A stretch of DNA of 59,036 nt from a virus (lineage: Duplodnaviria; Caudoviricetes), in IMG/VR virus record IMGVR_UViG_3300032258_000001, positions 1 through 59,036 of that record. One strand, given 5' to 3'. A program made the position numbers and the translations under genes. This document shows positions 648 through 48,292 of the stretch, in pieces (the first letter of the stretch is position 1; every line of letters starts with the position of its first letter). The notes below the pieces were generated by a model. That model was not told the origin of the DNA, searched no databases, and saw only the letters and a list, made by a program, of their open reading frames with translations.

Positions 648-2033
648 TTAGAATAATTTTTCACTTCCTTTAATATATTCCGTTATCGTGATTATGTCCA
701 CTTCGTCAGCATCATTGGCATAAAAGCCAGGCAGCTCTTCGTCAGTGCAGAGTGGCACGGTATCCTCCTCTGCAGTGCCGAATACATTCATGAAAAAGGT
801 CGTCCCCGATGGGAGAGCTTGGTCCAGGTAACGTAAGAGCTTCAATGCGTTCTGATCCGGAACAACAGTAACATCAAGTGTTATGAACAGCGTAGCCGAC
901 GATAGGAAGTTGTCCCGTATGAGCACGAACGGGTTGACGACCCATGGGCGCTTCTGGTCACCTATTATGGCGGTCTGGAGATCTATGCCCCTGGCGGCGG
1001 CTTCCGCTTCGGCATTGGTCCAAAACTCCGCGACATCCGAGGCGTCTCCTCCTATCTGGAATTGATATGTATCCGTCTCCAGGTCGGAGTTCTCGAAGCT
1101 CAGGCCCTGCCCACTGGGCGTTTCCAGGAATGCCCTGCCTAACGTGAACTGCGGGAAATCCGCGGGATCTATGTAATCCTTACCGCCCACTATGGTAAAT
1201 ACGTCGAAAAGAAGCTGACCCTCCACTACGGTGTCACCCTCGGCGACGATCGCACGAGTAGTGCCTGGACAACTGTGAAGCATATCACCTATAGCCACCC
1301 AGGTCCGTGATCCTTCGTTCCAGACATGATCCACCATACCGTCTGTCTGCGCCACATCCGTGTCCGCAATGGCTCCTATGAACGCATTTACGCGATATTT
1401 GGTGGCTCCTTCCTGCAGGAGGTCATAAACGGCGTTCAGAATGTTCTTGTAATAGTCGCTGGAGGGCGTCAGCATGCCCACGACACGTCCATAATGGTCC
1501 TGGAGGTACCCAGCGTCATCAAAACCGTCCAGAAGCCACAGGTCGACCATCTTGATATTCTCTTCGTCGATCGTCTTGAGGTGCTGGCGGAACTCTTCGG
1601 AGAAAGGATCGGCGTAGATTAGCAGTTCACTGTCGATTATGTCGAATTCAGTGCCCCGCTGCCACATGATTTGGGGGGTTACGGGGCTATCCGTGATAAC
1701 GCTTATGTTCTCCAGGGGCGTAGGCATAGCCCACACCTGCGGATTTGTCTGTAATTCGTCCAAAGTGCGCCCTTCATCCATGTTGAAGGAGCCCAATGTC
1801 ACATATTTGCGCGTCAAAGTAAGCTCATCGACCAAAATATAGTCGGTTTCGCTGTATTTTTTGGCAGGAATGTCGAATCTATTGAGGAATTTAGGCAGCT
1901 CATCGACTTTTTGGCCTAATCTGGCGAACATGAAGGTCATGCTCGTGACTAAAGCGTCGTAGAACTCTTCCTCCTTCCAGACATTGTTCCAGAAGGACCC
2001 GAACATCTTCTTGATTTCGGCTCTCTGCGTCAT
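648..2033 (-). CDS. putative baseplate wedge protein (T4 gp7 / P2 gpI-like position)
   Basis: 461 aa; ATGA-coupled to the baseplate J-like gene; C-terminal 'LRYLDQALPSGT' resembles the wedge-protein L..l.PAgt motif. Confidence 0.5.
   Translation of the reverse strand: MTQRAEIKKMFGSFWNNVWKEEEFYDALVTSMTFMFARLGQKVDELPKFLNRFDIPAKKYSETDYILVDELTLTRKYVTLGSFNMDEGRTLDELQTNPQVWAMPTPLENISVITDSPVTPQIMWQRGTEFDIIDSELLIYADPFSEEFRQHLKTIDEENIKMVDLWLLDGFDDAGYLQDHYGRVVGMLTPSSDYYKNILNAVYDLLQEGATKYRVNAFIGAIADTDVAQTDGMVDHVWNEGSRTWVAIGDMLHSCPGTTRAIVAEGDTVVEGQLLFDVFTIVGGKDYIDPADFPQFTLGRAFLETPSGQGLSFENSDLETDTYQFQIGGDASDVAEFWTNAEAEAAARGIDLQTAIIGDQKRPWVVNPFVLIRDNFLSSATLFITLDVTVVPDQNALKLLRYLDQALPSGTTFFMNVFGTAEEDTVPLCTDEELPGFYANDADEVDIITITEYIKGSEKLF
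672..701 (-). promoter_or_regulatory. candidate phage promoter GTGGACA-N17-TATATT
   Basis: Minus strand gTGGACA taatcacgataacggaa TATATTaaa; same motif and 17-nt spacer as at 17508, 21872 and 48263. Confidence 0.65.
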
Positions 2034-3622
2034 ACTTCATCCTTCAATGCAACTGCCACGTTGGACGCGAGGCAGTAATAGAACGTATTCTTCTCCGTTA
2101 CCCAGGAATATGAAGAGTCCGGGACATTTATGCGGCCATTCAACACGCTGACGCTCTTCATGGAGCCGTCAGGCAGCTGAAATTCAGCCTGCATGGTTAC
2201 CGGGAACGCCACATGGAGCGTCTCGTCGACACCTTCGACGGCGTTTACGACTAGAGAGGCGTCCAAACCGTCCAAACCTATATCGGTATCGTTTATGGCG
2301 GCGGCCACTGCGTTCTGCAGCTTCTCCACCGTAGTGCCCGTGTCACCAGGAACCCGCTCGACGGTGACGGTTATACTCACGCTGGCCGGGTGTGGCGCCC
2401 TTATGAGCACGTCCTGGGCCTCGTTGCGGATACTGTCCCTGTTGATGAACTCCTGTAGTGTCTGTAGCTGAGGCATGGTGAGCAGTTCAAAGTCGAAAGT
2501 GAGCTCAACTGAGGTGCTCTCGTACTCGAAGCTGACCAAAGCCGTCTGGTAGATGCTGTAGCGTGCCGTATCCGCACTGAATACATGTGGGCCACCCTCT
2601 TCGGTTGCGTAGCCATATTCCACGGTAGCTTCATTCTCATCGGTAACCTGTACGCCGCTGCTGGTCTCCTTGATCGACAGTATCCTGTAAAAGCCCAAGG
2701 CAGTGTCGTTATCCAGGAAGGCGATCCATGGATCGTCAGTCGTGGCTCTGCTGGCTGTCACAGACACCGTTCGCACGGCAGGTATGTCGGACGTGCGAGG
2801 ATAGGTGTCTACCCTGCCGCCTGTACTGATACCGAACACATTGTCCCGATCCCGAATACACTCCGGATCGTTTATGCCGAACGAACGCTGGCTGAGGATG
2901 TTTACGCCGCTCTGGTCGGCGAACAGTGCGGTAAGATGTGCGTTGCCGCTGGGGATCTTCGCCGTCAGGCCGTTCTGGGCTTGCTCAAGTATATCAGCCG
3001 TGGATGCTTCCGCACGGCCGCCCACGACGCTGGAGCTAACTTCTATGCGGCTTACTGTAGCCGGCCGCCCGGTCATGGTTACGTTCAGGCCCTGGGCCGC
3101 GGTATCGTCCGTGAAGTCTGTCGTACGCACGGGCACTGTGAACACCCATTCAGCGCCCACTTGCACAAGCTGCCTGTAGACGGTATCATCCTTGTCCACG
3201 TAGTTGTCGGCGTTGGCCACGCCTACATACGTCCTGTCATTGGTCAGGCCCACACCGCCTGCCGACAGTTTGGAGCCTATCGGTATGTATACGTTGCTCT
3301 CCTGCCTAGTGTACACGGCGAGCTCGCCAGTACCATATATGCCCTCCTTGAGAGTCACGCGGAAGTTGGACGCCAGGGAAGCCACAAGCTCTTGGTCGGG
3401 CTCGTCCGCTATGCTGGCCAGATACAGGGACATGTTGGCCCGCAGTGTGTCCAGCTCTTCTTCGTCGTTGGCGGCTCTGACGGCCGTTGGGCGTATGACG
3501 GTCTCATACAGCAGGCTACCGTAGGACCACTCGTACTCGGGGTACAGCTCTTGATAAGCCGCTATGAAAGTCTCCTCGTAATCCTGCAGAATATCAGGAT
3601 CGATACTGTCTACATCAAGCAT
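2030..3622 (-). CDS. baseplate wedge protein (P2 gpJ / T4 gp6-like)
   Basis: 530 aa; 'YPEYEWSYGSLLYETVIRP', 'VYIPIGSKL', 'GGRAEASTADIL', 'GGRVDTY' follow the baseplate-J pattern; directly after a gp25-like gene. Confidence 0.75.
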   Translation of the reverse strand: MLDVDSIDPDILQDYEETFIAAYQELYPEYEWSYGSLLYETVIRPTAVRAANDEEELDTLRANMSLYLASIADEPDQELVASLASNFRVTLKEGIYGTGELAVYTRQESNVYIPIGSKLSAGGVGLTNDRTYVGVANADNYVDKDDTVYRQLVQVGAEWVFTVPVRTTDFTDDTAAQGLNVTMTGRPATVSRIEVSSSVVGGRAEASTADILEQAQNGLTAKIPSGNAHLTALFADQSGVNILSQRSFGINDPECIRDRDNVFGISTGGRVDTYPRTSDIPAVRTVSVTASRATTDDPWIAFLDNDTALGFYRILSIKETSSGVQVTDENEATVEYGYATEEGGPHVFSADTARYSIYQTALVSFEYESTSVELTFDFELLTMPQLQTLQEFINRDSIRNEAQDVLIRAPHPASVSITVTVERVPGDTGTTVEKLQNAVAAAINDTDIGLDGLDASLVVNAVEGVDETLHVAFPVTMQAEFQLPDGSMKSVSVLNGRINVPDSSYSWVTEKNTFYYCLASNVAVALKDEV

Positions 3623-3630
3623 AATTCCTC

Positions 3631-4041: not shown

Positions 4042-4418
4042 AGATCAACCCTCTTTATGTTTGCGAGCAGCATGCCATCACTGTCCTTCTCATCGTCTGA
4101 GCTGCCTTCGTAAGTGGCTCGTTCGAGATAGATGATATAGTTACGCACATGGTTGAGTCTTGGATTAGTGGCGCTGTAGTTGTCCCTGGCAATGGACATC
4201 AGCAGATTGGAGCGCCTGCTGGCCGCCTGTATCGATGGGCGGATGTTATCGTCGGCGGCGTCGGTGACCTCCTTGTTCGTGAGGTCCACCACGTCCTGCA
4301 CCTTCTCTACCGTAATCTCCTCTGCAGGTGCATACGGCGTATCCTTGTCGGTTCCCAAGCAGGCATCTATTGTGGCCTGGAAGGACTCCTTGATGGAGTC
4401 ATATATCTTATCAAGCAT
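4038..4418 (-). CDS. hypothetical protein
   Basis: 126 aa ORF overlapping both neighbours in the operon. Confidence 0.55.
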   Translation of the reverse strand: MLDKIYDSIKESFQATIDACLGTDKDTPYAPAEEITVEKVQDVVDLTNKEVTDAADDNIRPSIQAASRRSNLLMSIARDNYSATNPRLNHVRNYIIYLERATYEGSSDDEKDSDGMLLANIKRVDL

Positions 4419-5190
4419 TGAGCTCCTCCCCTTCCTCTATCTTGGCGAGGATCTTGTTGATGCGCTTACTCACCGCCGGAGCGCTGATCTTGAGCTTCTT
4501 GGCAATGTCTCCCTTGGACAGCTTCTCGGAGCCACCATACCCCGTGCTGTATTCGTAGACCTTCTTGTCGATCGGGTCCAGCTCGAAGTAGACATAGTCA
4601 AGCCACATATCATAAGCTGACCTCTTGTTGTCGCCCTTGAGCAATAAGTCACCCTCCTCTCCCGTACTCCGTGACTGGGCGGAGGTTGGCTTGTACTGAC
4701 GGATACGCTGTATCTGCTTGGGTGAAAACTTGCTGCGGTCAGCCAGCTCATGCAGGTTAGGCTCGCGGTCGAATTCCGCCATGAACTCCTCTTGCACCTG
4801 GTTCAGGTGCGCCCGCTCCATCTGCACGTTCTCTGGGATGTGCATGACGTTGGAGCGTTCGTTGCGTATCCTGGTCAGCTTGTGCAGGCTGTTGCGGACA
4901 TGTGTGCGCTTGGAGGCACCTTTCTCTTCGTCGTAGTCCTCAAGTGCCTTGAGAGCCACCAGGTTGGCCTGCGTGCGCAAAGTCTCCGCCGCGCTACCGC
5001 CATAGTTACGCAAAGACGCGTCAATATCGGACTTGAGCTCTCCCAGAACCTTGCCCGCGTTGGCCGGGGTAGGCTTGGCTTTCCAGGCACTATAGGAAGC
5101 ATCCAGTGAGTTTGTGCTGACCGGCTTGCCTTCCTTATTCTTGTCTAGGAGCTTGTCCTTCTTTGCCCAGGGGCTCTTTATTTCGCTCAT
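4411..5190 (-). CDS. sigma70-family RNA polymerase sigma factor (regions 2, 3, 4; FliA/SigF-like size)
   Basis: Region 2 'ANLVALKALEDYDEEKGASKRTHV'; region 2.4/3 'SNVMHIPE...REPNLHELA'; region 4 HTH 'LDPIDKKVYEYSTG...LSKGDIAKKLKISAPAVSKRINKILAKI'. Confidence 0.85.
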   Translation of the reverse strand: MSEIKSPWAKKDKLLDKNKEGKPVSTNSLDASYSAWKAKPTPANAGKVLGELKSDIDASLRNYGGSAAETLRTQANLVALKALEDYDEEKGASKRTHVRNSLHKLTRIRNERSNVMHIPENVQMERAHLNQVQEEFMAEFDREPNLHELADRSKFSPKQIQRIRQYKPTSAQSRSTGEEGDLLLKGDNKRSAYDMWLDYVYFELDPIDKKVYEYSTGYGGSEKLSKGDIAKKLKISAPAVSKRINKILAKIEEGEELNA

Positions 5191-11349: not shown

Positions 11350-14079
11350 TTACTCGCTCTTATTAACAATATAATGCTTCAAGAACGTTTTGCCAATAAG
11401 ATAGTCTACCAGGACAGGTGAATCGGGCTCATGTCCGGGGTAGGGGTAGGTGTCTTCGTCGTCGCGGTCTTTTACCGGTTTCTGCTCCCAGTCGGAACCT
11501 CCGCCGCCGACACTGAGCATGTTCTGCCAGCGTACCGTATGCATCAGGAAGTCCTGCTGGTCGACATCATCCGGCTTGTCGAACTGGAACCAGGGCTTCA
11601 GTATGGTAGTGTCCGTATGGTTGAGTACCCCGAAGAATGCGTTCGGGATGAGTCCTACGGTGAATGGTTCTATGGTGAAGTTAGGTGGGGTGTACTCCCT
11701 TATATAAAGCCCAGTATCTTCCGGGGCGTTCTTGAACTGCCCAGTGGATGCCCTTATGGAAGCAGCCTGGATACCGCCCGTCAAATCCAATGAGGTCGCC
11801 TTTATGGAGCCATTGATGCTGAGGGAGACCTGAGACGGCGGCGTCACTTCTTCCTGGGTGTCTCCAGTTTCGTCCACCCATGGGAACCCGACGATGCCTT
11901 GTACGGTTCCGCCTATGGTCAATGCCCCGCACGCGAACTCCGCTGCGGTGGAGACTATCTGCATCTTGTCGTTATCTATTCCGAAGGCCGCCTGCCCGGC
12001 CGAGAACCCGACGGTAGTCTCGAAGCGTCCGTACAGATCGCTGCCCTGCATCCATATAGGACCACCACGCGAATCCAGAAAGATGGAACCAGGTATGCTT
12101 CGCTCGAGTCCTTCGGCGTCTTCTTGCGGGGTGACGCCTATATACATGTCCTGTCCGGTCATCCGGAGGTCCGCCTTGGTGCGTATGGTGATTCCTTTCT
12201 CGTCCTCCAGGTTGCCTGAGGGGGCCTCCGACCTGTCCTCGAGAAGGATGCGTCCGCCTTCTTCCCCGTTACCCGCCAATACGTCTACGTTGGTCTCGGC
12301 CTTGATGCGCACGTTGCCTTCATCGGACACGATCTGCACCTCCTCGCCGGCTATGGTGGCCTTCCTGCGTGGCACCAACTCTATCATGTCACGCCCGGGA
12401 CGCAGCTCCAGATCAGCGGCGGAAGAGATGGTGATCCTGCCACGGAACATGCGGATCTCGCTTCCATGGCCATCACTGATGACGATCGTGCCGTCCGGCT
12501 GCTGCCGTATAACCGACTCAAGCGCATACAAGCGCCTGCTGAGCTCCGTTACGGGGTCTTCCTCGTCTATATGCGGCGGCTCGTCGTAGAATGGCTTACC
12601 AGCCTCCAGTGTCTCCAATTCAGCGATTTTGTCAAGCTCCAGGTCGGGGTACTCCTCTTTGAGTTCCTCCCGGGTCATCATACGCCAATATTCAGGGCGC
12701 TCCTTCACCTTGGTATTGCGGAACTTGTCGCTGTCCTCGTCAAACTCCTTGCTCTCGAGTGCCGCCGCGAAAGGGTAGAAGTCCTCCTCCCCCTCTTCTT
12801 TGTAAGTCTTCTCGTATGGGCCTTCCGGATCGATTGTTTCCAGACTGGCTTCGTCCAGCTCCCTGTCATGAGGCTTAAGCTGCTCAGGCACCGGTATATA
12901 TACCGACTTGACGTGGTCTATGCCGCCTGCAGCCCTGGTTTCATGGCGACCATCGTATGTCTTCCTGACGCTTACCTTGCCTATAGGGGGTTTTCCAGAC
13001 GCCGTATGAACCTCGTCCTCCTCGAATGGGCGGAGTATGGCTTCGAGCTCCCCGTCAGCCATAGGGCCTGCAAGCTCCGTATGCCTGAAGACGCCCAGCT
13101 GGTCTTCCTCGGTTAGCTCAGGTGGTTCATCGTCTCCTCCGGAGCCTCCGCCTCCTTCAGATTCCCCGGAATCATCGCCTCCCAGGCTTATGCCGAATGC
13201 CGACGTAGGCAGGCCGAAAGCCTCAAGGGCACTGGCTGCGGCATTCCCCGCAGTCTCCAGAAGCCCAGGCTCATCGCCGCCTCCACCACCCTTGGTGAAT
13301 GGCTCACTCTCTCCAACGGCTCCCATGCCCTCACGCTCGTTCATGGCATGTCGTTTGTAGTACAGCATGCCCTCTAGACCAGGCTCCCTGCCGTCCTCCA
13401 CTGCCATGCCGCGGTCTTCGAAGCTCCTGGCCGTCATACGCAGCTTGTCGTGGAATGCGAAAGCCTCCACCATGGCCATTGGACTGGCTCCGATGGAAGC
13501 TTTGGAGGCACAAACGGTAAGGAATGTATGCAGCGACCCATACTTTACGAAGTCACCGGCGAACGTGTCTGCCGGTCTTCCGAAGCTTATGTCACGCAGT
13601 GTCTTGTCGATCTTCTGGGTGGTGGCATACCCTTCTACGTACGTCTGTACGAAATGGTCCAGATCCTCACCGTGGAGGGTGGACCCAGGATAACCCTGTG
13701 CGGAGTCCATGAAGTTTTCAGGAGCTGCGCACAGTATGTAGCCAACTGAGCTGTTATACTGGGACGAAAGACCCTCATAGGTCTCCCTGTGGCAGGCAAC
13801 GAGTACGGAATCCCGTGCTTCGTACACAGGACCTCCCTGAACCCCGCTGCGTCCAAAAGATCCCTGCATACTGCAGCATGTAATGACGGTGCCCTGTGTG
13901 GTGCCGTGCCGGGGGAGTACGAGGTACAGCCCCAGGCCAGGATATACCATTAAGACCTCGCCTTGGATGAGATCCAAGTTGAGGCCTTTAACAGTTTCCT
14001 CCAAAGGTTTCGTGTCCAAGCGTCCAAGGATCTCCTGGAACCTTTCGGGGGACGCAGCCATAGCGTCGTTATCAGCCAT
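11350..14079 (-). CDS. baseplate central spike/hub protein (gp5/VgrG-like)
   Basis: 909 aa; N-terminal OB-like region and beta-repeat segment 'DGTIVISDGHGSEIRMFRGRITISSAADLELRPGRD...VQIVSDEGNVRIKAETNVDVLA'. Confidence 0.6.
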   Translation of the reverse strand: MADNDAMAASPERFQEILGRLDTKPLEETVKGLNLDLIQGEVLMVYPGLGLYLVLPRHGTTQGTVITCCSMQGSFGRSGVQGGPVYEARDSVLVACHRETYEGLSSQYNSSVGYILCAAPENFMDSAQGYPGSTLHGEDLDHFVQTYVEGYATTQKIDKTLRDISFGRPADTFAGDFVKYGSLHTFLTVCASKASIGASPMAMVEAFAFHDKLRMTARSFEDRGMAVEDGREPGLEGMLYYKRHAMNEREGMGAVGESEPFTKGGGGGDEPGLLETAGNAAASALEAFGLPTSAFGISLGGDDSGESEGGGGSGGDDEPPELTEEDQLGVFRHTELAGPMADGELEAILRPFEEDEVHTASGKPPIGKVSVRKTYDGRHETRAAGGIDHVKSVYIPVPEQLKPHDRELDEASLETIDPEGPYEKTYKEEGEEDFYPFAAALESKEFDEDSDKFRNTKVKERPEYWRMMTREELKEEYPDLELDKIAELETLEAGKPFYDEPPHIDEEDPVTELSRRLYALESVIRQQPDGTIVISDGHGSEIRMFRGRITISSAADLELRPGRDMIELVPRRKATIAGEEVQIVSDEGNVRIKAETNVDVLAGNGEEGGRILLEDRSEAPSGNLEDEKGITIRTKADLRMTGQDMYIGVTPQEDAEGLERSIPGSIFLDSRGGPIWMQGSDLYGRFETTVGFSAGQAAFGIDNDKMQIVSTAAEFACGALTIGGTVQGIVGFPWVDETGDTQEEVTPPSQVSLSINGSIKATSLDLTGGIQAASIRASTGQFKNAPEDTGLYIREYTPPNFTIEPFTVGLIPNAFFGVLNHTDTTILKPWFQFDKPDDVDQQDFLMHTVRWQNMLSVGGGGSDWEQKPVKDRDDEDTYPYPGHEPDSPVLVDYLIGKTFLKHYIVNKSE
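11368..11396 (-). promoter_or_regulatory. candidate promoter TTGGCA-N17-TATATT upstream of the chaperone/tape-measure genes
   Basis: Same TATATT -10 as the repeated motif with a variant -35; about 45 nt upstream of ATG 11323. Confidence 0.45.
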
Positions 14080-14560: not shown

Positions 14561-17446
14561 TTAGAAGATGCGGAATTTGATGTTCAGGATGTTGAGCGGC
14601 TCGGGAAGGTCGAGGTCGACTTCGCACCAGATTTGGTCCTTGTTGACCGGGTCCTTGTAGAGCTTCTCGATCGTCATGTCCTGCAACTGCGGGCCGATCT
14701 GCGGCGGGAAGCTACGAGCCGTGATCAGGCTCTTTACCGAGTAGAGGCGGGAGCGGATGAGCTCCAGCATCTCGTCGGATACGTTGCCCCTGCCGTAGAG
14801 GTCGGATACGTAGTCGCGGAAGTCGCGGACGATCGCGTCCGCGTTGGTCGTGACGCTCTGCTCGCGATGGCCGACATCCTGCATGTCTGTCGTCAGCTGA
14901 TGACGGGAGTAGACGTCGCCTGCAGCGTCCTCATGGACGATCCAGACGCCTTGCGCCGCCATGTTGTTCAACTGGGTACCACCGAGGGTAATCGTGGTCG
15001 TGATGTCGAGGTTTTGCAGCTCGTAGTGGCTCAACGGCTGATGCGGTGCCACTGCGCTGCGAAGACCTGCGATGTATGCGGCCAGGACAGCCTTGGATAC
15101 GTCCGTCTCTCCGCCGAAGGCGAGGGAATCGGACCACAGGGCGCAGACCCGGCGATTTTCATGCTGCTGTGCGACGGCGCCTACCGAAGCGACGTACTCG
15201 TTCGGAGTTGCCGTGCGCCAGACTTCCATCTTGATGGCGATGCCGATGTCGGCTGCCGGGGCCTCGGTCACGGTCAGCTCAGTATCGCTTACGACCTCGT
15301 CAATGACATAGGTATCGTATACGGTACCGCCCTTGTTGTCGGGCTGATAGTTGATGTGAACCTTGTCACCAGCCCGGACGCCCTCGGCGACGAACTCGGC
15401 GTTCGCGCACACCAGGTCGGTCCCGATGAGTGTGGCCAGCAGATCGTTCTCATCGTTGCCGATGGTGTAGAACGAATCGTAGACCGGAACGTCAATGCCG
15501 CGGATCAACTGGCGGTAGAGTGCCCGCTCCTTGGCGCTTGAGAACTCAACGCTGGCTTCCAGTGCGTCGCAGACATCCTGCTCCGTACTGTAAGGAACCA
15601 GACTGTAAGGCTCGAGGCGCCAGTCCTGGATTCCTGCAGCAGTTTCGTACCCGTCCAGGTCGTCGGTCTCCAGCTGGATGTAGTAGACCAGCGTACCGTC
15701 GGCGGGTGTGAGGGCCGCCTTGACCATGAGGCTCAGGGGGTTGTCCTCGACCGCCGGGCCGAGGTTGTCCTCGACGTCCAGCACGTTGCTGAGTCCGAGC
15801 AGCTTGTTGGCGTCGGCTGTGAGCAGCTCCCGGTATTCCATGTAGAGGTCACCGGAGAGGAGCGTGTGCGCCGTGGTGATTCCAAGATACATGGCCGTAG
15901 TATAGGTGGCTCCTCCGCCAACTATGATACTCGCGGTGCTCGCCGTCCACCACTCATCGCCTAGATCGATGTCGTCGATGAGGCTCAAGGTGACGTCCAG
16001 CGTGGACACGTCGGTCGCACCGGTCAGCTTGTCCCGCAGGACCAGCGTGCGGACTGCGCCGAGTCCGGCTGCCGTGACTGCCACGAGGTATTTGTCGCCG
16101 GTTACCAGGTCTTCGTCTTCCTGGAACTGCAGCGTCACGCCCTGCGTCCCGATGACATTGTGAGCATCGGCAGTGACTGCAGTCGTGGTCATGGCGTCAG
16201 AGCCATTGATGGTGGTCGCCTTGATCGTGACGCTGTTGGTAGACACATACTCGACCCAAGAACCCGTTTCGTCGGCGACGTACGAGGTCACGATGTCGAA
16301 TGTATCATCGGTTATCTTGGTAATGGTGAGCGCCGAGCCGTTGTAGCTCGTGGTGCCGCTTATGGTCACCTTGTCGCCGGACACGAGCCCGTGCGAGGCA
16401 GAGGTGATCCTGGCTGCGCCGCTACCGTTGTCGGCCACTGCGGTGATGTCACCACTCAAAGATCCACGCCCGACGATCCCACCAGTAACCACTTCAACGA
16501 TGTAAGTGGTGTCGATGGCACCGATGTAGGTACCGGCAGCTTCTAGCGTCGGTACGACGTTCTTGGCTTCAAAGGTGACGGTCATCGAATCGCCGACGTT
16601 GATGGTCTCTGACGCTCCGCTACCGAATTCGATGGTTGCACCCTGATCGCCTATCTCATAGGCCGTACCGTAGGCGCTTGCAGTGAGCTCGCCATCATCG
16701 TCTCCGTTATTAGCGGTTACGGTGAAGACAGTACCAGGCAGCTTGTTTCCACTGCCAGCAGTTTTGACGGTAAGAATGTATGTCTCGGATGGATGACCGT
16801 AAGCCAGCCCCGTGAAACCGGTCTCGTCCAGGGTGACCGTCATGGACGCTTTTCCTGGTAGCGGCGAATCTTCATTGCTACTGGCCGCCACTATCTCAGC
16901 TGCGTTTCCGGTATCAGGCGTAGCATCGCCGCCGGCAACGTCACCGGCCACAGTTGCCTCGTCGACGTCGGCCACAAGGCCGCTGACGATGCTGTCCACC
17001 GTGGTACTGCCGAAGGTAACGCGGATAGCGTCACCGATGCGGACATCCCGGCTACCTAGAACAGCGCTACGGCTGTAACCGTTGGCAGTCTTGAAGATGT
17101 AAGTATCGAAGCGGATGCGGTTACCGTTGTCCTCGAGGAGTCCGATTGGCGCAGTCCCGCCATCGCCGGTGACGGCGTCGTTGAAGTATTGAAGTACGGC
17201 ATCCTTTACCTTCAGGATGGCGGAACTGACGTCCACTACGCCATCGGCGGCCTTGTCGGGCCACGCGGTGAAGCTGTTGCCGCTGGTGTCATCGTACGCG
17301 CCGAGCAATGCCTCTTCCCCTTCCACACCGTAACGATGAAGCCCGTAACGGGGGGCGAGGATACAGGCATGCAGCGGCAGAGAGTTCGCGGCCGGGACGG
17401 ACACGAGTTCCTGCTCAATCAGCAGTGCGGGAGGTTGATAAGTCAT
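14561..17446 (-). CDS. contractile tail sheath protein
   Basis: 961 aa; N-terminal 'YQPPALLIEQE'; C-terminal sheath domain 'AAYIAGLRSAV..HQPLSH...REQSVTTNAD...YGRGNVS...DQIWCEVDLDLPEPLNIL'. Confidence 0.85.
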   Translation of the reverse strand: MTYQPPALLIEQELVSVPAANSLPLHACILAPRYGLHRYGVEGEEALLGAYDDTSGNSFTAWPDKAADGVVDVSSAILKVKDAVLQYFNDAVTGDGGTAPIGLLEDNGNRIRFDTYIFKTANGYSRSAVLGSRDVRIGDAIRVTFGSTTVDSIVSGLVADVDEATVAGDVAGGDATPDTGNAAEIVAASSNEDSPLPGKASMTVTLDETGFTGLAYGHPSETYILTVKTAGSGNKLPGTVFTVTANNGDDDGELTASAYGTAYEIGDQGATIEFGSGASETINVGDSMTVTFEAKNVVPTLEAAGTYIGAIDTTYIVEVVTGGIVGRGSLSGDITAVADNGSGAARITSASHGLVSGDKVTISGTTSYNGSALTITKITDDTFDIVTSYVADETGSWVEYVSTNSVTIKATTINGSDAMTTTAVTADAHNVIGTQGVTLQFQEDEDLVTGDKYLVAVTAAGLGAVRTLVLRDKLTGATDVSTLDVTLSLIDDIDLGDEWWTASTASIIVGGGATYTTAMYLGITTAHTLLSGDLYMEYRELLTADANKLLGLSNVLDVEDNLGPAVEDNPLSLMVKAALTPADGTLVYYIQLETDDLDGYETAAGIQDWRLEPYSLVPYSTEQDVCDALEASVEFSSAKERALYRQLIRGIDVPVYDSFYTIGNDENDLLATLIGTDLVCANAEFVAEGVRAGDKVHINYQPDNKGGTVYDTYVIDEVVSDTELTVTEAPAADIGIAIKMEVWRTATPNEYVASVGAVAQQHENRRVCALWSDSLAFGGETDVSKAVLAAYIAGLRSAVAPHQPLSHYELQNLDITTTITLGGTQLNNMAAQGVWIVHEDAAGDVYSRHQLTTDMQDVGHREQSVTTNADAIVRDFRDYVSDLYGRGNVSDEMLELIRSRLYSVKSLITARSFPPQIGPQLQDMTIEKLYKDPVNKDQIWCEVDLDLPEPLNILNIKFRIF

Positions 17447-17473: not shown

Positions 17474-18157
17474 TTATGACTTGTTCACAATAAAGCCTAT
17501 ACCTTTTAATATAGGTGCTATCGGTTTCAATTTCCACCCATGTGCGTTTGTCCAGGTGATTTGGACACCCACCATGTAGTTTTCGTGGTCATCTTCTATC
17601 TTCTGACTTTGGCTGATGGCTCCCACATGGAAGCCGCCTAGTTTGAAGTCTTGTTGTATGGCCGGACCGTACTCCAGAAGCATATAAAACACTTCCTCTG
17701 CAAGCCTTTCCGCCGCCATGTCGCTCTTGGCACTGCAGCATATAACCTGGTGCTGGCAGACGATGAGCTTCATAAAATCGATACCTTCCTGATTGCCCGT
17801 CTTGGGGCTGAAATGCGGTATGGCCCTATCGCGGAGAACTATCCGCTGCACCTGCACCTGTCCGCGGCTGACGTACAAAGCCGGCCGCTGTTGCAGGTGA
17901 GTGGCGTCATATTTCCGCCATGGCTCGATGTGCACCCTGCTCTGCGCATCCTCGTCATCGCTGTCCGGCAGCCAGATCAGCTTGCGGAGCTTGGAGTCGC
18001 TGATATTGGTGGCGCGGCTAAAATGGTTCTCGAGCAGCTTGAGTATGACCCCGGTCATTATACTCGGCCTGGTATCCGTGCTGCACAGCGAAGACGGGTC
18101 CGCCTCGGAGAGCACTTCTTGGGGAGTATCCCAGGTAGGTTCAGGTAGTATGGGCAT
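17474..18157 (-). CDS. putative tail terminator/completion protein
   Basis: 227 aa between neck genes and sheath; 'QQRPALYVSRG', 'AERLAEEV'. Confidence 0.55.
   Translation of the reverse strand: MPILPEPTWDTPQEVLSEADPSSLCSTDTRPSIMTGVILKLLENHFSRATNISDSKLRKLIWLPDSDDEDAQSRVHIEPWRKYDATHLQQRPALYVSRGQVQVQRIVLRDRAIPHFSPKTGNQEGIDFMKLIVCQHQVICCSAKSDMAAERLAEEVFYMLLEYGPAIQQDFKLGGFHVGAISQSQKIEDDHENYMVGVQITWTNAHGWKLKPIAPILKGIGFIVNKS
17508..17537 (-). promoter_or_regulatory. candidate phage promoter GTGGAAA-N17-TATATT upstream of the sheath gene
   Basis: Minus strand gTGGAAA ttgaaaccgatagcacc TATATTaaa, about 60 nt before the sheath ATG. Confidence 0.65.
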
Positions 18158-19927: not shown

Positions 19928-19959
19928 AAATAAGAGGCTGCGGGCCTGAACCCGCAGCC
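19928..19959 (-). terminator. hairpin / probable intrinsic terminator after the patatin gene
   Basis: Perfect 9-bp stem GGCTGCGGG/CCCGCAGCC (19936-19959) with a 6-nt loop, followed by TCTTATTT on the minus strand. Confidence 0.55.
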
Positions 19960-20875: not shown

Positions 20876-20877
20876 GC

Positions 20878-21294
20878 TCAATGAGCCGCCAGGGCCTTGG
20901 ACACACACATGCCCTGACACTGCTGGGGCCTCACGGTTCTCTTGAAATCAATCATGGAGAAGAACTTCTTCAGGGGGCCTTTCTCCGGTACCATGATGTC
21001 GTTCGGAGCGATTATCTCCGCATGATGCTCTTTATCCAACTCTGCCACCAGCAACGGTATCTCCTTGGTCTCCGCCGCCGAGAACAACTCCCTTGGTGGG
21101 ATGCTGTAGTCGAGCTCTCTGTCACAGATGATCAGCGAGGCCTTTTCCTTGCCCTCGTAGATTTCGATCAACGCTTCCTGTACAGTGGGTACCTTCACGA
21201 TGAGGCACTCTCGGCTCTTTACCTGCTCGACAGCCCTTGCAAGCTTGTCGGCTTGCACTAGCCCACTGGTTACCCATATAATCTTAGTCATCAT
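20878..21294 (-). CDS. receiver (REC)-like domain protein, degenerate
   Basis: 138 aa; 'KIIWV...TVQEALIEI...SLIICDREL...EIPLLVA' follows the CheY-like pattern but lacks the N-terminal acidic pair. Confidence 0.45.
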   Translation of the reverse strand: MMTKIIWVTSGLVQADKLARAVEQVKSRECLIVKVPTVQEALIEIYEGKEKASLIICDRELDYSIPPRELFSAAETKEIPLLVAELDKEHHAEIIAPNDIMVPEKGPLKKFFSMIDFKRTVRPQQCQGMCVSKALAAH

Positions 21295-21836: not shown

Positions 21837-21871
21837 TTTATTTCCTTTTTGTCATAATGCGCTCTTTACCT

Positions 21872-21901
21872 AAGATAGCATGAAACCACACTTTTATCCA
21901 C
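21872..21901 (-). promoter_or_regulatory. candidate phage promoter GTGGATA-N17-TATCTT
   Basis: Minus strand gTGGATA aaagtgtggtttcatgc TATCTTagg in the AT-rich intergenic gap; also has an extended -10 TG. Confidence 0.6.
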
Positions 21902-35689: not shown

Positions 35690-35725
35690 AGAAAGCCCCC
35701 GGACCCGAGGTCCGGGCACGGGGGC
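35690..35725 (-). terminator. probable intrinsic terminator after the major capsid gene
   Basis: Stem CCCGGACC-cga-GGTCCGGG (35698-35716), extendable through GC pairs, followed by TTTCT on the minus strand. Confidence 0.6.
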
Positions 35726-38786: not shown

Positions 38787-38820
38787 ATTATACTGTAGCA
38801 CACATTTGTGCCACAGACAA
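38787..38820 (-). promoter_or_regulatory. candidate promoter upstream of the scaffold/capsid genes
   Basis: Minus strand ttgtctGTGGCACaaatgtgtgctacagTATAATtagg: perfect TATAAT, but the GTGG element is spaced 15 nt; an alternative reading is TTGTCT-N17-TACAGT. Confidence 0.45.
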
Positions 38821-42592: not shown

Positions 42593-44774
42593 AATTCTCG
42601 GTCAACTCGTCGTTGAAGAGGTTGCTGTCTTCGCCGCTGCTCGTGTTGTGCAGGAACAGCGTCAGTTCGGAAACGTTCTGGAAGTTGTCGCGGAGGCTGT
42701 CCTCCAGTTCGCTCATCTTCTCGTGGCCATACTGGTCCTTGAACTGGTTGTAATGCCAGTAGAACATGAACAGGATGCGGCCGATGCGGTCCATGGCCAG
42801 CATGAGATCCTGCAGGTAGTCTTCCACCATACGGGACGGGCTACCGGAAGATGCGAGCGACTTCAGCACGCTGACGTCCATGACGTCCTTGACACCCTTG
42901 TCGCTGGCGTCGACGACCTCGTCCACCTCTTCGGTTGCCATCTCCGGGTCCATGTACTCGCTTTCCTCATATGGCGTGGACTCCTGGAATCCTACCGAAG
43001 GCTCCTCATCGTGGCTGTCGGGCCACTTCGGATCGGACGCAGCGTACTTGACCAGGAAGGTTTCGCGCGAAGGCTTGCCTACGCTCGCTTCCTTGTTGAT
43101 GATCATGCGGGCGTCGGCGGCGGAGATTCCGTGATCCTTGACCAGCTTGATCAGGGCGGCCTGCTTGCTGAGCATGCGCTCCCTACCGAACTTGCCGTCG
43201 ATCATGTAGTCGACGCCATCGGTCTGGACGGTTAATGAACGCCAACCTGCAGTCTTGATGATCTTGTGCTTGATGGTCTCCAAGTCGCCGACCGGCATTT
43301 CGCCGCCCCAGCACTTGCAGGCCACGATGCGTGCACCTTCCGGAATGTAAAGATGGGTACCCTTGCGGCAGACCATGCCGGGTTTACCGGTCAGCTCCAC
43401 GATACCATCATCATCACACCATTCATCTGTGTCGCTCGGCAGCTTTGCCCCGGCGATCTTGTTGCCGACAAGCTTGCCATTGTTCATTTCGAAGCGTTCA
43501 TAGTTGCCCTTCGAGTCGATGGCCAGGCAGCTGTGCCATTTGTAGGAGTCCGAGCCCATATCGTAGGCTTCCTCAGTGTCTCTGTCAGCGTCCTTACGGA
43601 ATTTGGACATAAGGCTGGTAGGCTTGATGCCGATGCCGCTGATGTCGGTGTCTTCCCGGGCTTCCAGGTTACGACACAGGATGGGCCGATCGCAGACGTG
43701 CGCTTCGTTCGGCTTGTTCAGGTCGATGACCATATAGCTGAACTCTTTGATGTCCGCGCTCTTGTGCTCCGGGTTCCTGGTGAGCTTCGACCAGCTGGTC
43801 TTACCCTTCGGGGCTACAATAATGTAGCACTTCTTGAAGCTACCATCAGCCATGAGGACTTCAAAGTAGCCATTCTTGCCTGGTGTAGCCAAGCTGCCAC
43901 TGGCCTGCTTGTCGACGAAGACGGTGGAGGTCTTCTTCCGTCCATCGACTACATAAAGGCCATCCCGCAGGACGACTTCCTTAGCCTTGTCATCGAGTTT
44001 CTTGACGGCATCGGTGTCTTCCAGGGTGATGATCTGCAGCTGGTTCTCGTTGTGGACTGCATCCACCATGAGGGGATACGTCCCGTCCTGTACTTCGCTA
44101 CCATCGGGGGGAGGCTGATTGTCCTTGACGGATTCGGCTATCTTGCGGATGTCCTCCGGTTCATAGAACTTGAGTATTGCGTTGGCGAAGTCCGGGTTGG
44201 TGTTCAGGGTCCTGAAGAAGCTGACTGCCGCATGTTTTCCGAGGCGCGGTAGCCACTCCCTTAGGTCAAATCTGTCTTTGCCGCGTTCATCGTAGACGAG
44301 GACCATGTCCGCGATGTCGTCGTGGATTCCTTCTTTGTCGATGAAGCTCGCGCCCTTGAACATGATGCTCTTGCTCTTGGAATCACGGCGGAGGCTGACG
44401 GCGTCTGCCCGCTTGGGCTTGCTCTTCGGCATGTCTCCGGACTTCTCGCCCAGCAGTGCCGTACGGTTCTGGCGGATGTAGGAGACCCATGTGTCCTTGG
44501 CCGGTACGAACTGGCTCTTCTCCGGCAGATACATCATGTCGTATCCACGGATGCGGCCATTGAGGAAGAACGCCGGGACATAGATCCACTGCTCGCCTAC
44601 CTTATAGACCATAACACCCATACCACGTGTGCCATCGTCGTCGCGTTCGACCAGCTGGAAGCCGACCTTGTATTCGTTGAGAGACGGCAGCCGTTGAGTG
44701 ATCTCGGCATCCGCCACGTTTGCAAGCTTGACTTCAAAATCGTCAGCAGCAGTCTTCCTGATAACACCTATCAT
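42585..44774 (-). CDS. putative internal head protein
   Basis: 729 aa, ATGA-coupled to the RNAP beta'-C gene; about ten KxA motifs. Confidence 0.55.
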   Translation of the reverse strand: MIGVIRKTAADDFEVKLANVADAEITQRLPSLNEYKVGFQLVERDDDGTRGMGVMVYKVGEQWIYVPAFFLNGRIRGYDMMYLPEKSQFVPAKDTWVSYIRQNRTALLGEKSGDMPKSKPKRADAVSLRRDSKSKSIMFKGASFIDKEGIHDDIADMVLVYDERGKDRFDLREWLPRLGKHAAVSFFRTLNTNPDFANAILKFYEPEDIRKIAESVKDNQPPPDGSEVQDGTYPLMVDAVHNENQLQIITLEDTDAVKKLDDKAKEVVLRDGLYVVDGRKKTSTVFVDKQASGSLATPGKNGYFEVLMADGSFKKCYIIVAPKGKTSWSKLTRNPEHKSADIKEFSYMVIDLNKPNEAHVCDRPILCRNLEAREDTDISGIGIKPTSLMSKFRKDADRDTEEAYDMGSDSYKWHSCLAIDSKGNYERFEMNNGKLVGNKIAGAKLPSDTDEWCDDDGIVELTGKPGMVCRKGTHLYIPEGARIVACKCWGGEMPVGDLETIKHKIIKTAGWRSLTVQTDGVDYMIDGKFGRERMLSKQAALIKLVKDHGISAADARMIINKEASVGKPSRETFLVKYAASDPKWPDSHDEEPSVGFQESTPYEESEYMDPEMATEEVDEVVDASDKGVKDVMDVSVLKSLASSGSPSRMVEDYLQDLMLAMDRIGRILFMFYWHYNQFKDQYGHEKMSELEDSLRDNFQNVSELTLFLHNTSSGEDSNLFNDELTENFA

Positions 44775-46603
44775 TGTTGGACCTCTTGTATGTTTACTAG
44801 CCTCGGAAAATACGATGTGCTTTGTTTTTCGCTCATGGCGCCGCGCTCGGCCGCCCGAGTCATTACTCGCTTGAGATTCTCTCCTGCGAGTCGTGTCAAC
44901 AGATCCTTATCCGTCGACATGAAATCCTGCGCTCGGGTAACTTCGGGCTCAAACGGCGGCGGCTCCGAGTGAGCCAGCACCGTCTTGACGCCTGCCTTCT
45001 GCAATCGCTTGGCAATACGCGGAGTCACGCGCGTGCCTATCGTATAGTGCAGATAGGGTTTCTCTAAGTATAATTTATTCGCTGTAGTGACACTTTTCAA
45101 GGCAGCCCCCTCACGAGGCTTCCAGTTCGACGCTATCGTGGAGTAGTCCACGACGTCGTCCGGCAGGTATCCTTCAACCCCGTCCGGGTCGGTCACGCGC
45201 ACCCTGCCGATAAACTGTCTGGCCAGATATTCAAGGTTACGGCGGTTGGTGCTCGCCCCTGAATTCTTGAGAATCTCACGGAGATGCTTGAGGAAGTAGA
45301 CTCGTCCCTCTCCGATTCCTTTATGCTTAACGACCTCGGCAGCGTTCATCATCCCATCGGAGATCATGTCGCCGGCCTCAACTACGTCGCCCTGCCTGAC
45401 TTTGACCTCGTAGCCTTGTGGGACATAGTGCCGGTCCGGGCCTATCATGACGTAATGGCCGCCTTGCGGCGCTTTCTTGATCCCGGCTACCTTGCCGTCA
45501 CGCTGTGCGACGGTGGCTGCCCCTGGAAACTCCTTCGGCACCTGAAAAAACTTGTTGACGGCCGAAAAGCCGGTCTCTATCCTGGAGGTCTCACCGACTT
45601 CTCCACCTACATGCTTGGAGGAGATGGCACTCTGCGTCAGAGGTTCTATGAACGTACGTGCGCCGGTAACCCCGACAGCGTCTCCTATGTTCGGCAACGC
45701 GCCGGTCTCTCGGACTCCGGCGCACTTGGCACAGATGCCCTCCTTAGCCTGGCACGTCAATGCGCTGCGACCAACGATCTCCCTGTCCTTAACGAGCGCG
45801 ATATTTTCATCGTCTAAAATAGTTCCGGCCTTGAGCTGCCCGGTATCCTTGGCCAGGACGGTACCGACATTGTCCTGGTCGTCTCCGGCCAGCTCGATAC
45901 CTTCGGTCGTGCCACAATCCTCTTCGGTGACGACACTCCTGTGTCCTACATTGGTGATCTGTTTACCGAAGTAGCCGCTGTCCGCCGTAGCGAACTGCAC
46001 ATCCACATAACCCTTCCGGGCTCCATGGCTCGCAGCCCAATATGCCAGTGGGCTCACGCCCTCAGCGTATCCCTCGAGGCTCGGGTAGGGGACTGGGCGT
46101 CCCTTGGAGTCGGCACTGATCAGGTTACCTAGTAGAAGCTGACGCAGCTGGAAAGGCTTGCCACGGCTGCCACTGTTGATCTGAAGTGCGAACGATCCGT
46201 CGCGCTCGGTTACAGCATTGAGCAGATCCTGGTCGATGGTCTTGCTAAAGTCCGTGACCATTTTCATGACGGTTTTGGTCTTCTGCTCCGTGGACATAAG
46301 GGGGCTATCATACACCTGGGCGACTTTGGCCTTCAGCTCGTCACGCCGCTTGGCGATCTCAGGCGGGACCTTGAAGTCATCGGGGCGTAGGGAGGCTACC
46401 CGCCCATACAAGGATACGGTGTTGACTGCAAGCGTGTTAAGCTTGTGCAACACATCCTCATACTTCTCCGGGTCCTCCTGTGCGAGCCTAGTGTAAAAAG
46501 CCTCGATCTCCTTCTTTCCCATGACCCCTTTGAATTGGTCCCGGTACTTTTCGGGGATCGCGGCCTTCACCTTCTCGCGGCCCAATGTCGTGACTATCGC
46601 CAT
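44771..46603 (-). CDS. rpoC: phage RNA polymerase beta' subunit, C-terminal part
   Basis: 'TTLGR', 'INSGSRG', bridge helix 'SHGARKGYVDVQFATADSGY', 'VTEEDCGT', Zn site 'RSALTC...GICAKCAG', trigger region 'GDAVGV...EPLTQSAISSKHVGG'. Confidence 0.92.
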   Translation of the reverse strand: MAIVTTLGREKVKAAIPEKYRDQFKGVMGKKEIEAFYTRLAQEDPEKYEDVLHKLNTLAVNTVSLYGRVASLRPDDFKVPPEIAKRRDELKAKVAQVYDSPLMSTEQKTKTVMKMVTDFSKTIDQDLLNAVTERDGSFALQINSGSRGKPFQLRQLLLGNLISADSKGRPVPYPSLEGYAEGVSPLAYWAASHGARKGYVDVQFATADSGYFGKQITNVGHRSVVTEEDCGTTEGIELAGDDQDNVGTVLAKDTGQLKAGTILDDENIALVKDREIVGRSALTCQAKEGICAKCAGVRETGALPNIGDAVGVTGARTFIEPLTQSAISSKHVGGEVGETSRIETGFSAVNKFFQVPKEFPGAATVAQRDGKVAGIKKAPQGGHYVMIGPDRHYVPQGYEVKVRQGDVVEAGDMISDGMMNAAEVVKHKGIGEGRVYFLKHLREILKNSGASTNRRNLEYLARQFIGRVRVTDPDGVEGYLPDDVVDYSTIASNWKPREGAALKSVTTANKLYLEKPYLHYTIGTRVTPRIAKRLQKAGVKTVLAHSEPPPFEPEVTRAQDFMSTDKDLLTRLAGENLKRVMTRAAERGAMSEKQSTSYFPRLVNIQEVQQ

Positions 46604-46613
46604 TTAGTATATC

Positions 46614-47438: not shown

Positions 47439-47449
47439 CGGGAGACTCC

Positions 47450-48232
47450 TTATTTACCGGCCACCTTCGTCCTGCTCCAATGATCCATGGCCATCTTCGG
47501 CATGGTCTCCGACGGGAACTCCCCAGGAGGCATACCGCTCTCCATGGCAGCCATCATCGGGTCCATTCCGCCCATGGCCGGGTCTTCCATGCCTGCGGCA
47601 ACGGCTGCTATATCTTCCGGAGCTGCCGCTTCGCCGCCAATAGAGGTATCACCCCCTACCCCGACGTCACCAGCCGGAAGCTGTACGCCAGTGGCGGCTG
47701 CCAACGCTTGCAGCGACTCCTCGATGGTCTGCATCTTGGCCATGATGTCCTTGTTCGTAACACGTTTGGACTCGGACTCCGGTGCGCCTTCGCCGCCTTC
47801 ACCCTGTAGCTCACTGATGACGAGCTTGAGATCTTCAAGATTCAAGGTGACGGGGGTACCTGCAGCTGCAGGGTCTTCCATCGGGGGAGCGCCGCCGGCC
47901 AGGGCGTCTTCGAGCGGAGGCATGCCTCCCATCATGGCGGGGTCCATTCCCATCATGGCCGGGTCCATCGGGGGTGCGCCGCCCATCATGGCGGGGTCCA
48001 TCGGGGGTGCGCCACCCATCATGGCGGGGTCCATCGGGGGTGCGCCACCCATCATGGCGGGGTCCATTCCCATCATGGCGGGGTCCATTGGAGGAGCTCC
48101 GCCGGCCATAGCCGGGTCCATGGGGGCTGCGCCCTGCTGGGCCGCCGCTGCCTGGGCCTCTGGGGTCATCGGGTTGAAAGCTTCTTTCGAGATGTTTTCT
48201 CGGGCCTGTTTCAGCAACTTATGGTCTAGCAT
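47450..48232 (-). CDS. low-complexity Met/Pro/Gly repeat protein
   Basis: 260 aa; tandem MDPAMMG(GAPP) units; KQA/KEA at the N-terminus, KMA/KVA at the C-terminus. Confidence 0.7.
   Translation of the reverse strand: MLDHKLLKQARENISKEAFNPMTPEAQAAAAQQGAAPMDPAMAGGAPPMDPAMMGMDPAMMGGAPPMDPAMMGGAPPMDPAMMGGAPPMDPAMMGMDPAMMGGMPPLEDALAGGAPPMEDPAAAGTPVTLNLEDLKLVISELQGEGGEGAPESESKRVTNKDIMAKMQTIEESLQALAAATGVQLPAGDVGVGGDTSIGGEAAAPEDIAAVAAGMEDPAMGGMDPMMAAMESGMPPGEFPSETMPKMAMDHWSRTKVAGK
47880..48130 (-). repeat. coding tandem repeat of 33-bp and 21-bp units
   Basis: Repeated catcatggcggggtccatcgggggtgcgccaccc and catcatggcggggtccattcc on the plus strand. Confidence 0.85.
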
Positions 48233-48262
48233 GATTCCTCCTGTGATTAAATCTTTGTGTTT

Positions 48263-48292
48263 AATATACCAGCTATGTCACTTATTTTCCAC
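48263..48292 (-). promoter_or_regulatory. candidate phage promoter GTGGAAA-N17-TATATT
   Basis: Minus strand gTGGAAA ataagtgacatagctgg TATATTaaa spanning the RNAP stop codon, about 30 nt before ATG 48232. Confidence 0.65.

Follow-up and report, generated by a model that had tools for sequence, protein, structure and literature searches.

Is a short element that recurs ahead of several late genes of an uncultured phage a promoter and, if so, which sigma factor and RNA polymerase (RNAP) read it? The element, GTGGAHA-N17-TATMTTA, lies in 59,036 bp of DNA from a tailed virus (Caudoviricetes; IMG/VR record IMGVR_UViG_3300032258_000001, positions 1 to 59,036; this whole stretch is referred to below as the window). 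The window is a fragment of a phage resembling Salmonella phage Arash, with a CheckV completeness of ~30%, and an initial annotation had proposed that the element is the cognate promoter of a phage-encoded sigma factor, the product of open reading frame (ORF) 4411-5190. We conclude that the sites are genuine and conserved, a variant of the classical -35/-10 promoter specific to this lineage, and that they mark transcription units internal to the late block. Promoter activity, the start sites and the sigma and core that read the sites are what we infer here: it is very probable that the four sites are promoters, whatever their reader, and we lean, at slightly less than an even chance, to the phage sigma as that reader.

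A pattern search of both strands returned exactly four matches in the window, all on the minus strand (701-671, 17537-17507, 21901-21871 and 48292-48262; copies 1 to 4), in agreement with the copies, strand and invariant spacer that the initial annotation had reported. The same pattern had no match in any of 100 dinucleotide-preserving shuffles of the window (mean 0.00). The two halves of the element occur together: the minus strand has three TATATTA sequences, each with GTGGA exactly 17 nt upstream, and the plus strand has one TATATTA. Among six minus-strand TAT[AC]TTA sequences, four belong to the motif and two, at 52468 and 11403, do not. Since all long ORFs of the window run on the minus strand, the copies all lie on the coding strand. 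The -10 hexamers of copies 1 to 4 end 34, 61, 35 and 30 nt, respectively, before the start codon, which fits the ~30-60 nt first noticed.

The coding context of the copies varies. The unrelated ORFs 648-2033 and 17474-18157 contain the whole of copies 1 and 2, respectively, in their 3' ends. In copy 4, the -35 element falls within ORF 48278-53704 and the -10 element past the stop codon, and copy 3 is intergenic except for a one-base overlap with the stop codon of ORF 21901-23610; the ORF ends thus confirm that two copies are wholly and one is partly embedded in coding sequence. All four have a 17-bp spacer and match TTGACA/TATAAT at 10, 9, 8 and 9 of 12 positions, respectively (copy 3 was scored by eye; with only 8/12 it is absent from the consensus-scan listing). 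A at -11 and T at -7 are present in all four sites (TATATT in three, TATCTT in one) and in the orthologs examined. The motif is not among the 20 largest direct-repeat families (>=20 nt) of the window and, thus, is not part of a longer dispersed repeat, and an Rfam scan of the whole window matched no family.

Relatives of the phage carry the sites at orthologous positions. The genomes used (G001, G002, L027, L028, L029 and L032) are metagenome-derived, their genes are simple ORF calls in which start codons may be off, and orthologous sites are non-independent observations. G002 (194,576 bp with terminal repeats, rated 100% complete, GC 59%) is the sole complete genome of the clade in the collections searched; its RNAP beta' C-terminal half (beta'C) is 72% identical to that of the window, and 38 of the 55 window ORFs have a homolog in the same order in it. 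G001 comprises 96 kb with a GC content of 44%, and that of L028 is 64%. A 34-nt matrix built from the four window sites and run on both strands of G002 gave exactly three outliers (30.9, 25.8 and 24.8 bits; the maximum over 20 shuffles had a mean of 13.3 and a 95th percentile of 16.0, and the next G002 match scored 16.0). These three mark the gene boundaries that correspond to copies 2, 4 and 1, and each lies on the coding strand 19-57 nt ahead of a called start; the copy 1 ortholog, at 24.8 bits against the 95th percentile of 16.0, reads TGGACA-N17-TATGTTATA. The same matrix gave two outliers in G001 (28.8 and 21.0; null 17.2) and one each in L027 (35.5) and L028 (38.1). When the spacer was ignored, a two-block matrix found 11 windows of at least 16 bits on the main coding strand of G002 and two on the other strand, compared with 0.1 per strand in shuffles; both other-strand matches precede genes of a small opposite-strand block, one of which is the terminase gene with TGGACA-N16-TATATTAGA.

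At individual loci, the copy 2 site is kept in G002, G001/L029, L027 and L028. The G at -34 is kept at the sheath-like gene in 6/6 genomes (including a re-created site in L032), after the beta gene in 3/3 and after the baseplate-like genes in 2/2. The non-coding -10 element of copy 4 is kept in all three genomes compared (TATATTAAA in the window, TATATTAAA in G002 and TATATTTAA in G001), whereas the rest of the leader and spacer up to the gene is not conserved across these genomes. The copy 3 locus in G002 is ambiguous, with an overlapping TGGATA-N16-TATATG and TTGACT-N17-TATTTT. Conserved high-scoring sites deep in genes (~45100, 41995 and 5554) and their G002 counterparts were set aside as probable coding conservation. 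A de novo expectation-maximization motif search of 133 G002 upstream regions converged on coding periodicity and was uninformative, and the window motif had no match in Arash, L030 or L031.

Protein coding could mimic such conservation, and the sites might then not be promoters at all: they could reflect conserved C-terminal peptides plus chance, or be a protein-binding signal for packaging or replication, or an RNA-level signal. The -35 boxes of copies 1, 2 and 4 and the -10 boxes of copies 1 and 2 do fall in conserved C-terminal peptides (W-x-L-x-PIAPILK, D-I-x-T-I-T-x-Y-I/V and I-V/L-E/D), and the sequencing runs listed as containing window DNA include no RNA run, the matches being two sediment-metagenome DNA runs that may be its source. 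As the alignments indicate, coding confounds some of the conservation seen across genomes. Copy 2 is embedded in the conserved peptide HGW-x-L-x-PIAPILK, and in all five phages that keep the site, with GC contents from 44 to 64%, P-I-L is spelled CCT-ATA-TTA. TTA is rare among Leu codons (3.5% in the window, 1.5% in G002), and this spelling has a joint codon probability of 0.0024 in the window and 0.00027 in G002. L032 spells the same peptide with ATC-TTG, which leaves the embedded -10 decayed to TATCTT; its sheath-like gene is preceded by a new intergenic TGGACA-N17-TATATT, 30 nt from the ATG. Because rare codons spell the -10 element, L032 swaps a coding for an intergenic copy, and the -10 element of copy 4 is non-coding, these comparisons argue that selection acts at the nucleotide level and not only on the protein. 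Moreover, the four copies span three different coding and non-coding contexts, occur only on the coding strand and within a narrow range of distances to start codons, and lack any Rfam match. We therefore regard an origin other than promoter function as very improbable, and the sigma70-type geometry first noticed is upheld by strand, distance to starts, orthologous conservation and nucleotide-level constraint alike.

The comparison also redefines the motif. The leading G of GTGGA, which the initial annotation had included, is specific to the window; relatives have T or C at this position, tracking the choice of Val or Leu codons, and it has to be dropped. The core shared across the clade is TGGAnA-N17-TATATTAAA(G/A). 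Its -35 element differs from TTGACA by one base (G at -34); its -10 element combines A at -11 and T at -7 with a T at -8 that does not vary, together with an A-rich extension. G002 also has canonical TTGACA/TTGACG-N16/17 sites at other loci, chiefly in its non-structural part, and these often follow closely on terminator hairpins. Their -10 elements read TACATTAAC, TATATTAAC and TACATTAAG, and also TATATTATA, TACTTTAGA and TATTTTATT, and T at -8 is invariant in the TGGA and TTGACx sets alike among the sites examined. Because TTGACx sites with the same extended -10 element occur in G002, TGGA is not a clean signature of two sigma specificities; judged by their shared -10 element, the TGGA sites appear to belong, as a subset, to a single promoter family instead of forming a cleanly separate class. 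Thus, the emphasis on TGGA instead of TTGA is justified for the sheath-like, post-beta and post-baseplate sites, where it is kept, but not as a dividing line within G002.

Two variants had been proposed in addition to the four copies, and one of them endures. The site at 11396-11368 is conserved as TTGGAA-N17-TATATT in G002, as TTGGTA-N17-TATATTAAAGG in L032 and with TATATTAAAGG in G001, and when read with a 16-nt spacer it again begins with TGG. The variant at 38814-38787, before the gene labelled scaffold, is rejected as a member of the family since its G002 counterpart reads TATAGG and has lost the T at -7; by this comparison it is probably a chance match. The coordinates of these sites and of the genes discussed below are collected in Table 1.

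Table 1. Promoter-like sites and associated features of the window (aa, amino acids).
Feature	Position	Strand	Description
Copy 1	671..701	minus	-35 TGGACA 700-695, N17, -10 TATATT 677-672, then AAAG; in 3' end of ORF 648-2033; 34 nt before ATG of 188-aa ORF (71-637)
Copy 2	17507..17537	minus	-35 TGGAAA 17536-17531, -10 TATATT 17513-17508, then AAAA; in 3' end of ORF 17474-18157; 61 nt before ATG of 961-aa sheath-like ORF
Copy 3	21871..21901	minus	-35 TGGATA 21900-21895, -10 TATCTT 21877-21872, then AGG; 35 nt before ATG of ORF 21291-21836; heads three-gene cassette ending in patatin-like gene and hairpin
Copy 4	48262..48292	minus	-35 TGGAAA 48291-48286 (last codons of RNAP beta/beta'N gene); -10 TATATT 48268-48263, then AAAC, past stop of that gene; 30 nt before ATG of 260-aa repeat protein, with beta'C further downstream
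Related site	11368..11396	minus	TTGGCA-N17-TATATT (alternatively TGGCAA-N16); 10/12 consensus matches; 44 nt before ATG of 217-aa ORF 10670-11323
Doubtful variant	38787..38814	minus	GTGGCA-N16-TATAAT before 355-aa ORF; TATAAT includes stop codon of upstream ORF
Phage sigma70-family factor	4411..5190	minus	259 aa; regions 2, 3 and 4; ortholog of Arash virion protein gp10
Structural protein served by copy 2	14561..17446	minus	961 aa; probably tail sheath
GC-rich hairpin	19936..19959	minus	10 pairs, T-rich tail; closes copy 3 cassette; kept in G002
Patatin-like phospholipase	20000..20920	minus	Patatin 94.5 bits (cut-off 27.7); last gene of copy 3 cassette
RNAP beta' C-terminal half (beta'C)	44771..46603	minus	Rpb1_5; 610 aa
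RNAP beta (Rpb2_6) fused to beta' N-terminal half (beta/beta'N)	48278..53704	minus	1808 aa

In the model that we favor, the four sites and the site at 11396-11368 would be sigma70-family promoters inside the long single-strand late (virion) block of an Arash-like myovirus, where they would act as internal re-initiation or booster promoters. Transcripts would start ~7 nt after the -10 element, giving leaders of ~23-54 nt, and the units served would be the sheath-like gene, the genes after the beta/beta'N fusion including beta'C, the patatin cassette, and the 188-aa gene after the baseplate-like genes. The reader would most likely be a holoenzyme containing the phage sigma, probably on the phage beta/beta' core; TGGAnA would be recognized by sigma region 4 and the extended -10 element by region 2.

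The components of such a holoenzyme are encoded by the lineage, which has beta/beta'N, beta'C and a sigma. ORF 48278-53704 matches Rpb2_6 at 141.9 bits, contains Rpb1 domains 1-3 and has the catalytic MDFDGD motif. The assignment of ORF 4411-5190 as a sigma factor is supported by a match to Pfam Sigma70_r3 (27.4 bits; cut-off 25.3), by PHROG 351 (6.5e-9) and by a profile of 23 homologs, whose regions 2-3 match SigA/RpoD structures in the PDB (E 1e-8). Region 4 aligns weakly to 8x6g_H, a sigma of 256 aa, and matches Sigma70_r4 with an E-value of 0.0025, below the cut-off. By similarity and synteny, the protein is the ortholog of Arash gp10. A predicted complex of the sigma with the beta'N clamp region scored the same as the control.

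Several observations point to the phage sigma as the reader. Only one sigma was found in the complete genome G002: in the search for a second, Sigma70_r2 gave no match in G000, G001 or G002, a candidate for a second, a weak Sigma70_r4-like match at C1:108110-108982 (minus), is an XRE/Cro-type helix-turn-helix protein (189 aa) and was rejected, and no homolog of the second Arash sigma, gp196, was found in G002, G001 or the window (best tblastn E-value 0.87). No other recurrent promoter-like motif able to serve the phage sigma was found in G002. Phages that differ widely in GC content keep the departures from consensus, namely G at -34, T at -8 and the AAA extension. Finally, the window, G002 and G001, whose sigmas are 41-56% identical and share the region 4.2 helix, have the motif and Arash lacks it, although this is a single and weak contrast; the helix reads ISAPAVSKRINKI in 23 clade members compared with an unrelated KNINQYNYESSKL in Arash gp10.

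Besides the coding overlap and the sequencing runs considered above, the generic consensus tells against promoter function as such: a sigma70 scan of the window returned 10, 19 and 19 sites compared with 11.2, 10.2 and 10.6 in shuffles, and matches at 8-10 of 12 positions do not by themselves set the sites apart. Other observations weigh against the phage sigma in particular. The motif is close to the housekeeping consensus, one base from TTGACA, and canonical TTGACx sites share its TAyATTAA -10 element in G002. The aromatic residues of region 2.3 are missing from the phage sigma (the segment aligned to YATWWIRQ reads HVRNSLHK), and it has A, P, S and K at the positions that we take to correspond to the -35-contacting R, E, R and Q of sigma70. 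The phage sigma gene sits within the late block. The virion RNAPs of phiKZ and N4 are packaged enzymes for early transcription and, by analogy with them, the late-block position of the sigma gene together with its packaged Arash ortholog suggests early rather than late targets.

Several of these points converge on a different reader, namely the host housekeeping sigma70/sigmaA holoenzyme alone, with the phage sigma serving other, for instance early, promoters. Such an enzyme would be expected to use sites that match TTGACA-N17-TATAAT at 9-10 of 12 positions, keep the 17-bp spacing exactly and have A at -11 together with T at -7; the canonical TTGACA/TTGACG-N16/17-TAyATT sites of G002, several of them just after terminator hairpins, fit it as well, and so do the divergence of the phage sigma from group-1 sigmas at the presumed -10- and -35-reading positions and the early role suggested by the virion location of its Arash ortholog. 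There is also a precedent in N4, whose late genes use host sigma70 RNAP. This explanation does not account for the G at -34, which is kept in 6/6, 3/3 and 2/2 genomes although T would be at least as good for sigma70, nor for T at -8 and the AAA extension, whose invariance goes far past the requirements of sigma70. Moreover, the phages span GC contents of 44-64% and presumably have different hosts, and G002 offers the phage sigma no other recurrent promoter-like motif. The conserved G at -34 and T at -8 may be departures that a host sigma would not prefer, although the TTGACx sites of G002 share the -10 element. On balance, we consider host sigma70 as the sole reader unlikely. As to the host, L032 (DYLS01000052.1) was binned in a Blastopirellula metagenome-assembled genome and a further relative, L033 (CAYXXQ010000145.1), in an uncultured Rhodobacter metagenome-assembled genome; these assignments may be binning artefacts and are at most a weak hint.

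The near-consensus -10 element paired with a conserved yet non-consensus upstream box at a fixed distance is also reminiscent of sigma appropriation. In T4 middle promoters, MotA and AsiA replace the -35 contact. Accordingly, the -10 element could be read by host sigma70 or the phage sigma while a phage late activator binds the GTGGA/TGGAnA box; the confinement of the sites to the late block would suit such an activator, and many ORFs without assigned function are available as candidates. By contrast, no activator candidate was identified among them, the box sits exactly at the position of the -35 hexamer and is one base from TTGACA, and the chaperone-side site uses TTGGnA. We consider appropriation of this kind distinctly improbable.

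Returning to the phage sigma as reader, a more far-reaching version of this assignment is that the sigma, the phage's own bacterial-type beta/beta' RNAP (probably packaged in the virion) and the cognate promoter TGGAnA-N17-TATATTAAA constitute a complete, portable sigma-dependent system of a ~190-kb lineage, distinct from the sigma-less phiKZ/AR9 enzymes, in which the same sigma serves the TTGACx and the late TGGAnA promoters. We put this forward tentatively, as a possibility that we would expect to fail rather than to hold.

The genes downstream of the sites could be named to different extents. For the patatin-like gene, the label of the initial annotation is confirmed by the Pfam match; the sheath label is a lead only, and the chaperone, scaffold and post-baseplate labels could not be verified. 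The 961-aa protein downstream of copy 2 is 25% identical to the Arash structural protein gp236 and had no match in Pfam or PHROGs. Its Atlas feature and structure neighbours, which include tail-sheath clusters, provide a lead only, the C-terminal 432 aa were modelled by AlphaFold2 with a mean predicted local distance difference test score (pLDDT) of 50.8, and a PDB profile search carried out alongside returned nothing meaningful; from the Atlas leads and the gene order, the protein is probably the tail sheath. The 260-aa ORF 47450-48232 (minus) after copy 4 is of low complexity, rich in Met, Asp, Pro, Ala and Gly, and made of 33-nt tandem units (MDPAMMGGAPP-like); it had no family match and has homologs in G002 and G001. 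The hairpin that closes the copy 3 cassette ends ~20 nt before the next ATG, and the layout in G002 is the same (copy 3 site, three genes, patatin). Another GC-rich hairpin with a T-rich tail (35698-35716, minus), also kept in G002, directly follows the major-capsid-like gene 35751-36725, which is a classical attenuator/terminator position.

The RNAP gene itself has a peculiarity. Residues ~773-1089 of ORF 48278-53704 form an insertion of ~317 aa that is not in the 1401-aa G002 ortholog. It starts with C-Y-D-E-E-T, has a weak LAGLIDADG_3 match and matches PHROGs of intein-bearing ribonucleotide reductase and ThyA proteins; by these features, it is probably an intein. The G001 ortholog has 2245 aa and two insertions.

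Other recurrent sequences in the relatives have different explanations. ATTAACAC, often as CCATTACCATTAACAC, immediately precedes the Shine-Dalgarno sequence in at least 7 G002 genes and several G001 genes, and is found in the window at ~37270; the 8-mer was seen 7 times in G002 compared with 0.48 expected. It was rejected as a promoter in G002 because it lies 10-35 nt before starts and downstream of promoter-like sites, and transcripts starting after it would lack the ribosome-binding site. A role as a leader, processing or translation signal is probable. In G001, fourteen tandem small paralogs at 3.7-11.2 kb have a DPLYxDLLKVKEL C-terminal end that overlaps the ribosome-binding site of the next gene, and a resemblance of GACCCACTATAC to T7-like promoters was rejected since it represents this conserved C-terminal coding end of the 14 paralogs. 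Also in G001, at ~44,440 and 76,500, the perfect palindrome GTCTAACGCGTTAGAC adjoins two promoter-like sites, one of which is the copy 4 ortholog; the palindrome looks like an operator.

The lineage comprises the cultured phage Arash and several sediment and aquatic metagenomic genomes, and it combines a two-gene bacterial-type RNAP core with a true sigma70-family factor, features treated as alternatives in a 2020 review (PMC7598289). The sites described here are the first concrete candidate templates for this RNAP and sigma system. If the phage sigma reads them, the four promoters and their orthologs are templates for a minimal sigma-dependent viral holoenzyme and could show how timing is set by one -35 base (G or T) in combination with an extended -10 element. 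If host sigma70 reads them, an RNAP-packaging phage returns its late transcription to the host, as N4 does. With either reader, the operons of uncultured genomes of this lineage can be better annotated.

Comparison with known systems begins with the cultured relatives, of which we found Arash and, likewise at 23-25% identity, three Vibrio phages. Arash (OQ632216.1; PMC10585845) is syntenic with the window in its structural, RNAP and sigma genes. However, protein identity is only ~25%, and Arash has the second sigma, gp196, that G002, G001 and the window lack. Its recurrent upstream motifs also differ: on the minus strand, ~40 copies of (T)GGTATAAG-N4-GTGTAAAC stand ahead of non-structural genes, and on the plus strand many structural genes have CTAAAATA in front of them; neither motif has a -35 element. 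In the description of Arash virions, beta (the most abundant by spectra), beta' and the sigma gp10 were detected, while gp196 does not appear in the virion listing (PMC10585845); the word "promoter" does not occur in the main text of that paper. Two sigmas and two motifs suggest two phage-specific promoter classes in Arash.

The window sites share with housekeeping sigma70/sigmaA promoters the two hexamers and the features that they match in spacing and sequence, but they differ by the G at -34, the T at -8 and the A-rich extension (TATATTAAA), and by being embedded in coding 3' ends without upstream terminators. Several phage sigmas work on the host core, such as SPO1 gp28 and gp33/34, phiEco32 gp36, and T4 gp55, which reads the late sequence TATAAATA. 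Similar to these systems, the window combines a phage sigma70-family protein with a few uniform, non-host-consensus promoters before late genes; by contrast, its phage has a beta/beta' core of its own and its sigma gene lies within the late block. The T4 late promoters consist of the -10 element TATAAATA only and lack a -35 element, whereas the window motif keeps a near-canonical one, and the conservation of the TGGAnA box at a fixed N17 in the window and its relatives separates the sites from this class.

In N4, the late promoters are read by host sigma70 RNAP together with the N4 single-stranded DNA-binding protein, the virion RNAP is a single-subunit enzyme, and no sigma is encoded. The parallels are a packaged RNAP for early genes and sigma70-like late promoters with an imperfect -35 element; the difference is that the window phage has a multisubunit RNAP together with a sigma. 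A different solution is represented by phiKZ/AR9-type RNAPs, which, as described in the 2020 review, use no sigma70-family factor; the AR9 non-virion RNAP instead uses gp226 and reads the template-strand motif 3'-UUGU-N6-AU, and the jumbo phages with recognisable sigma homologs are those without an RNAP of their own (PMC7598289). Like these phages, the window lineage encodes its beta/beta' homologs inside the structural block, and the Arash versions were found in virions. Unlike them, it has one RNAP set (the beta-beta'N fusion and beta'C) together with a true sigma70-family protein, and the -35/-10 geometry of the sites and the presence of this sigma gene set it apart from the sigma-less class.

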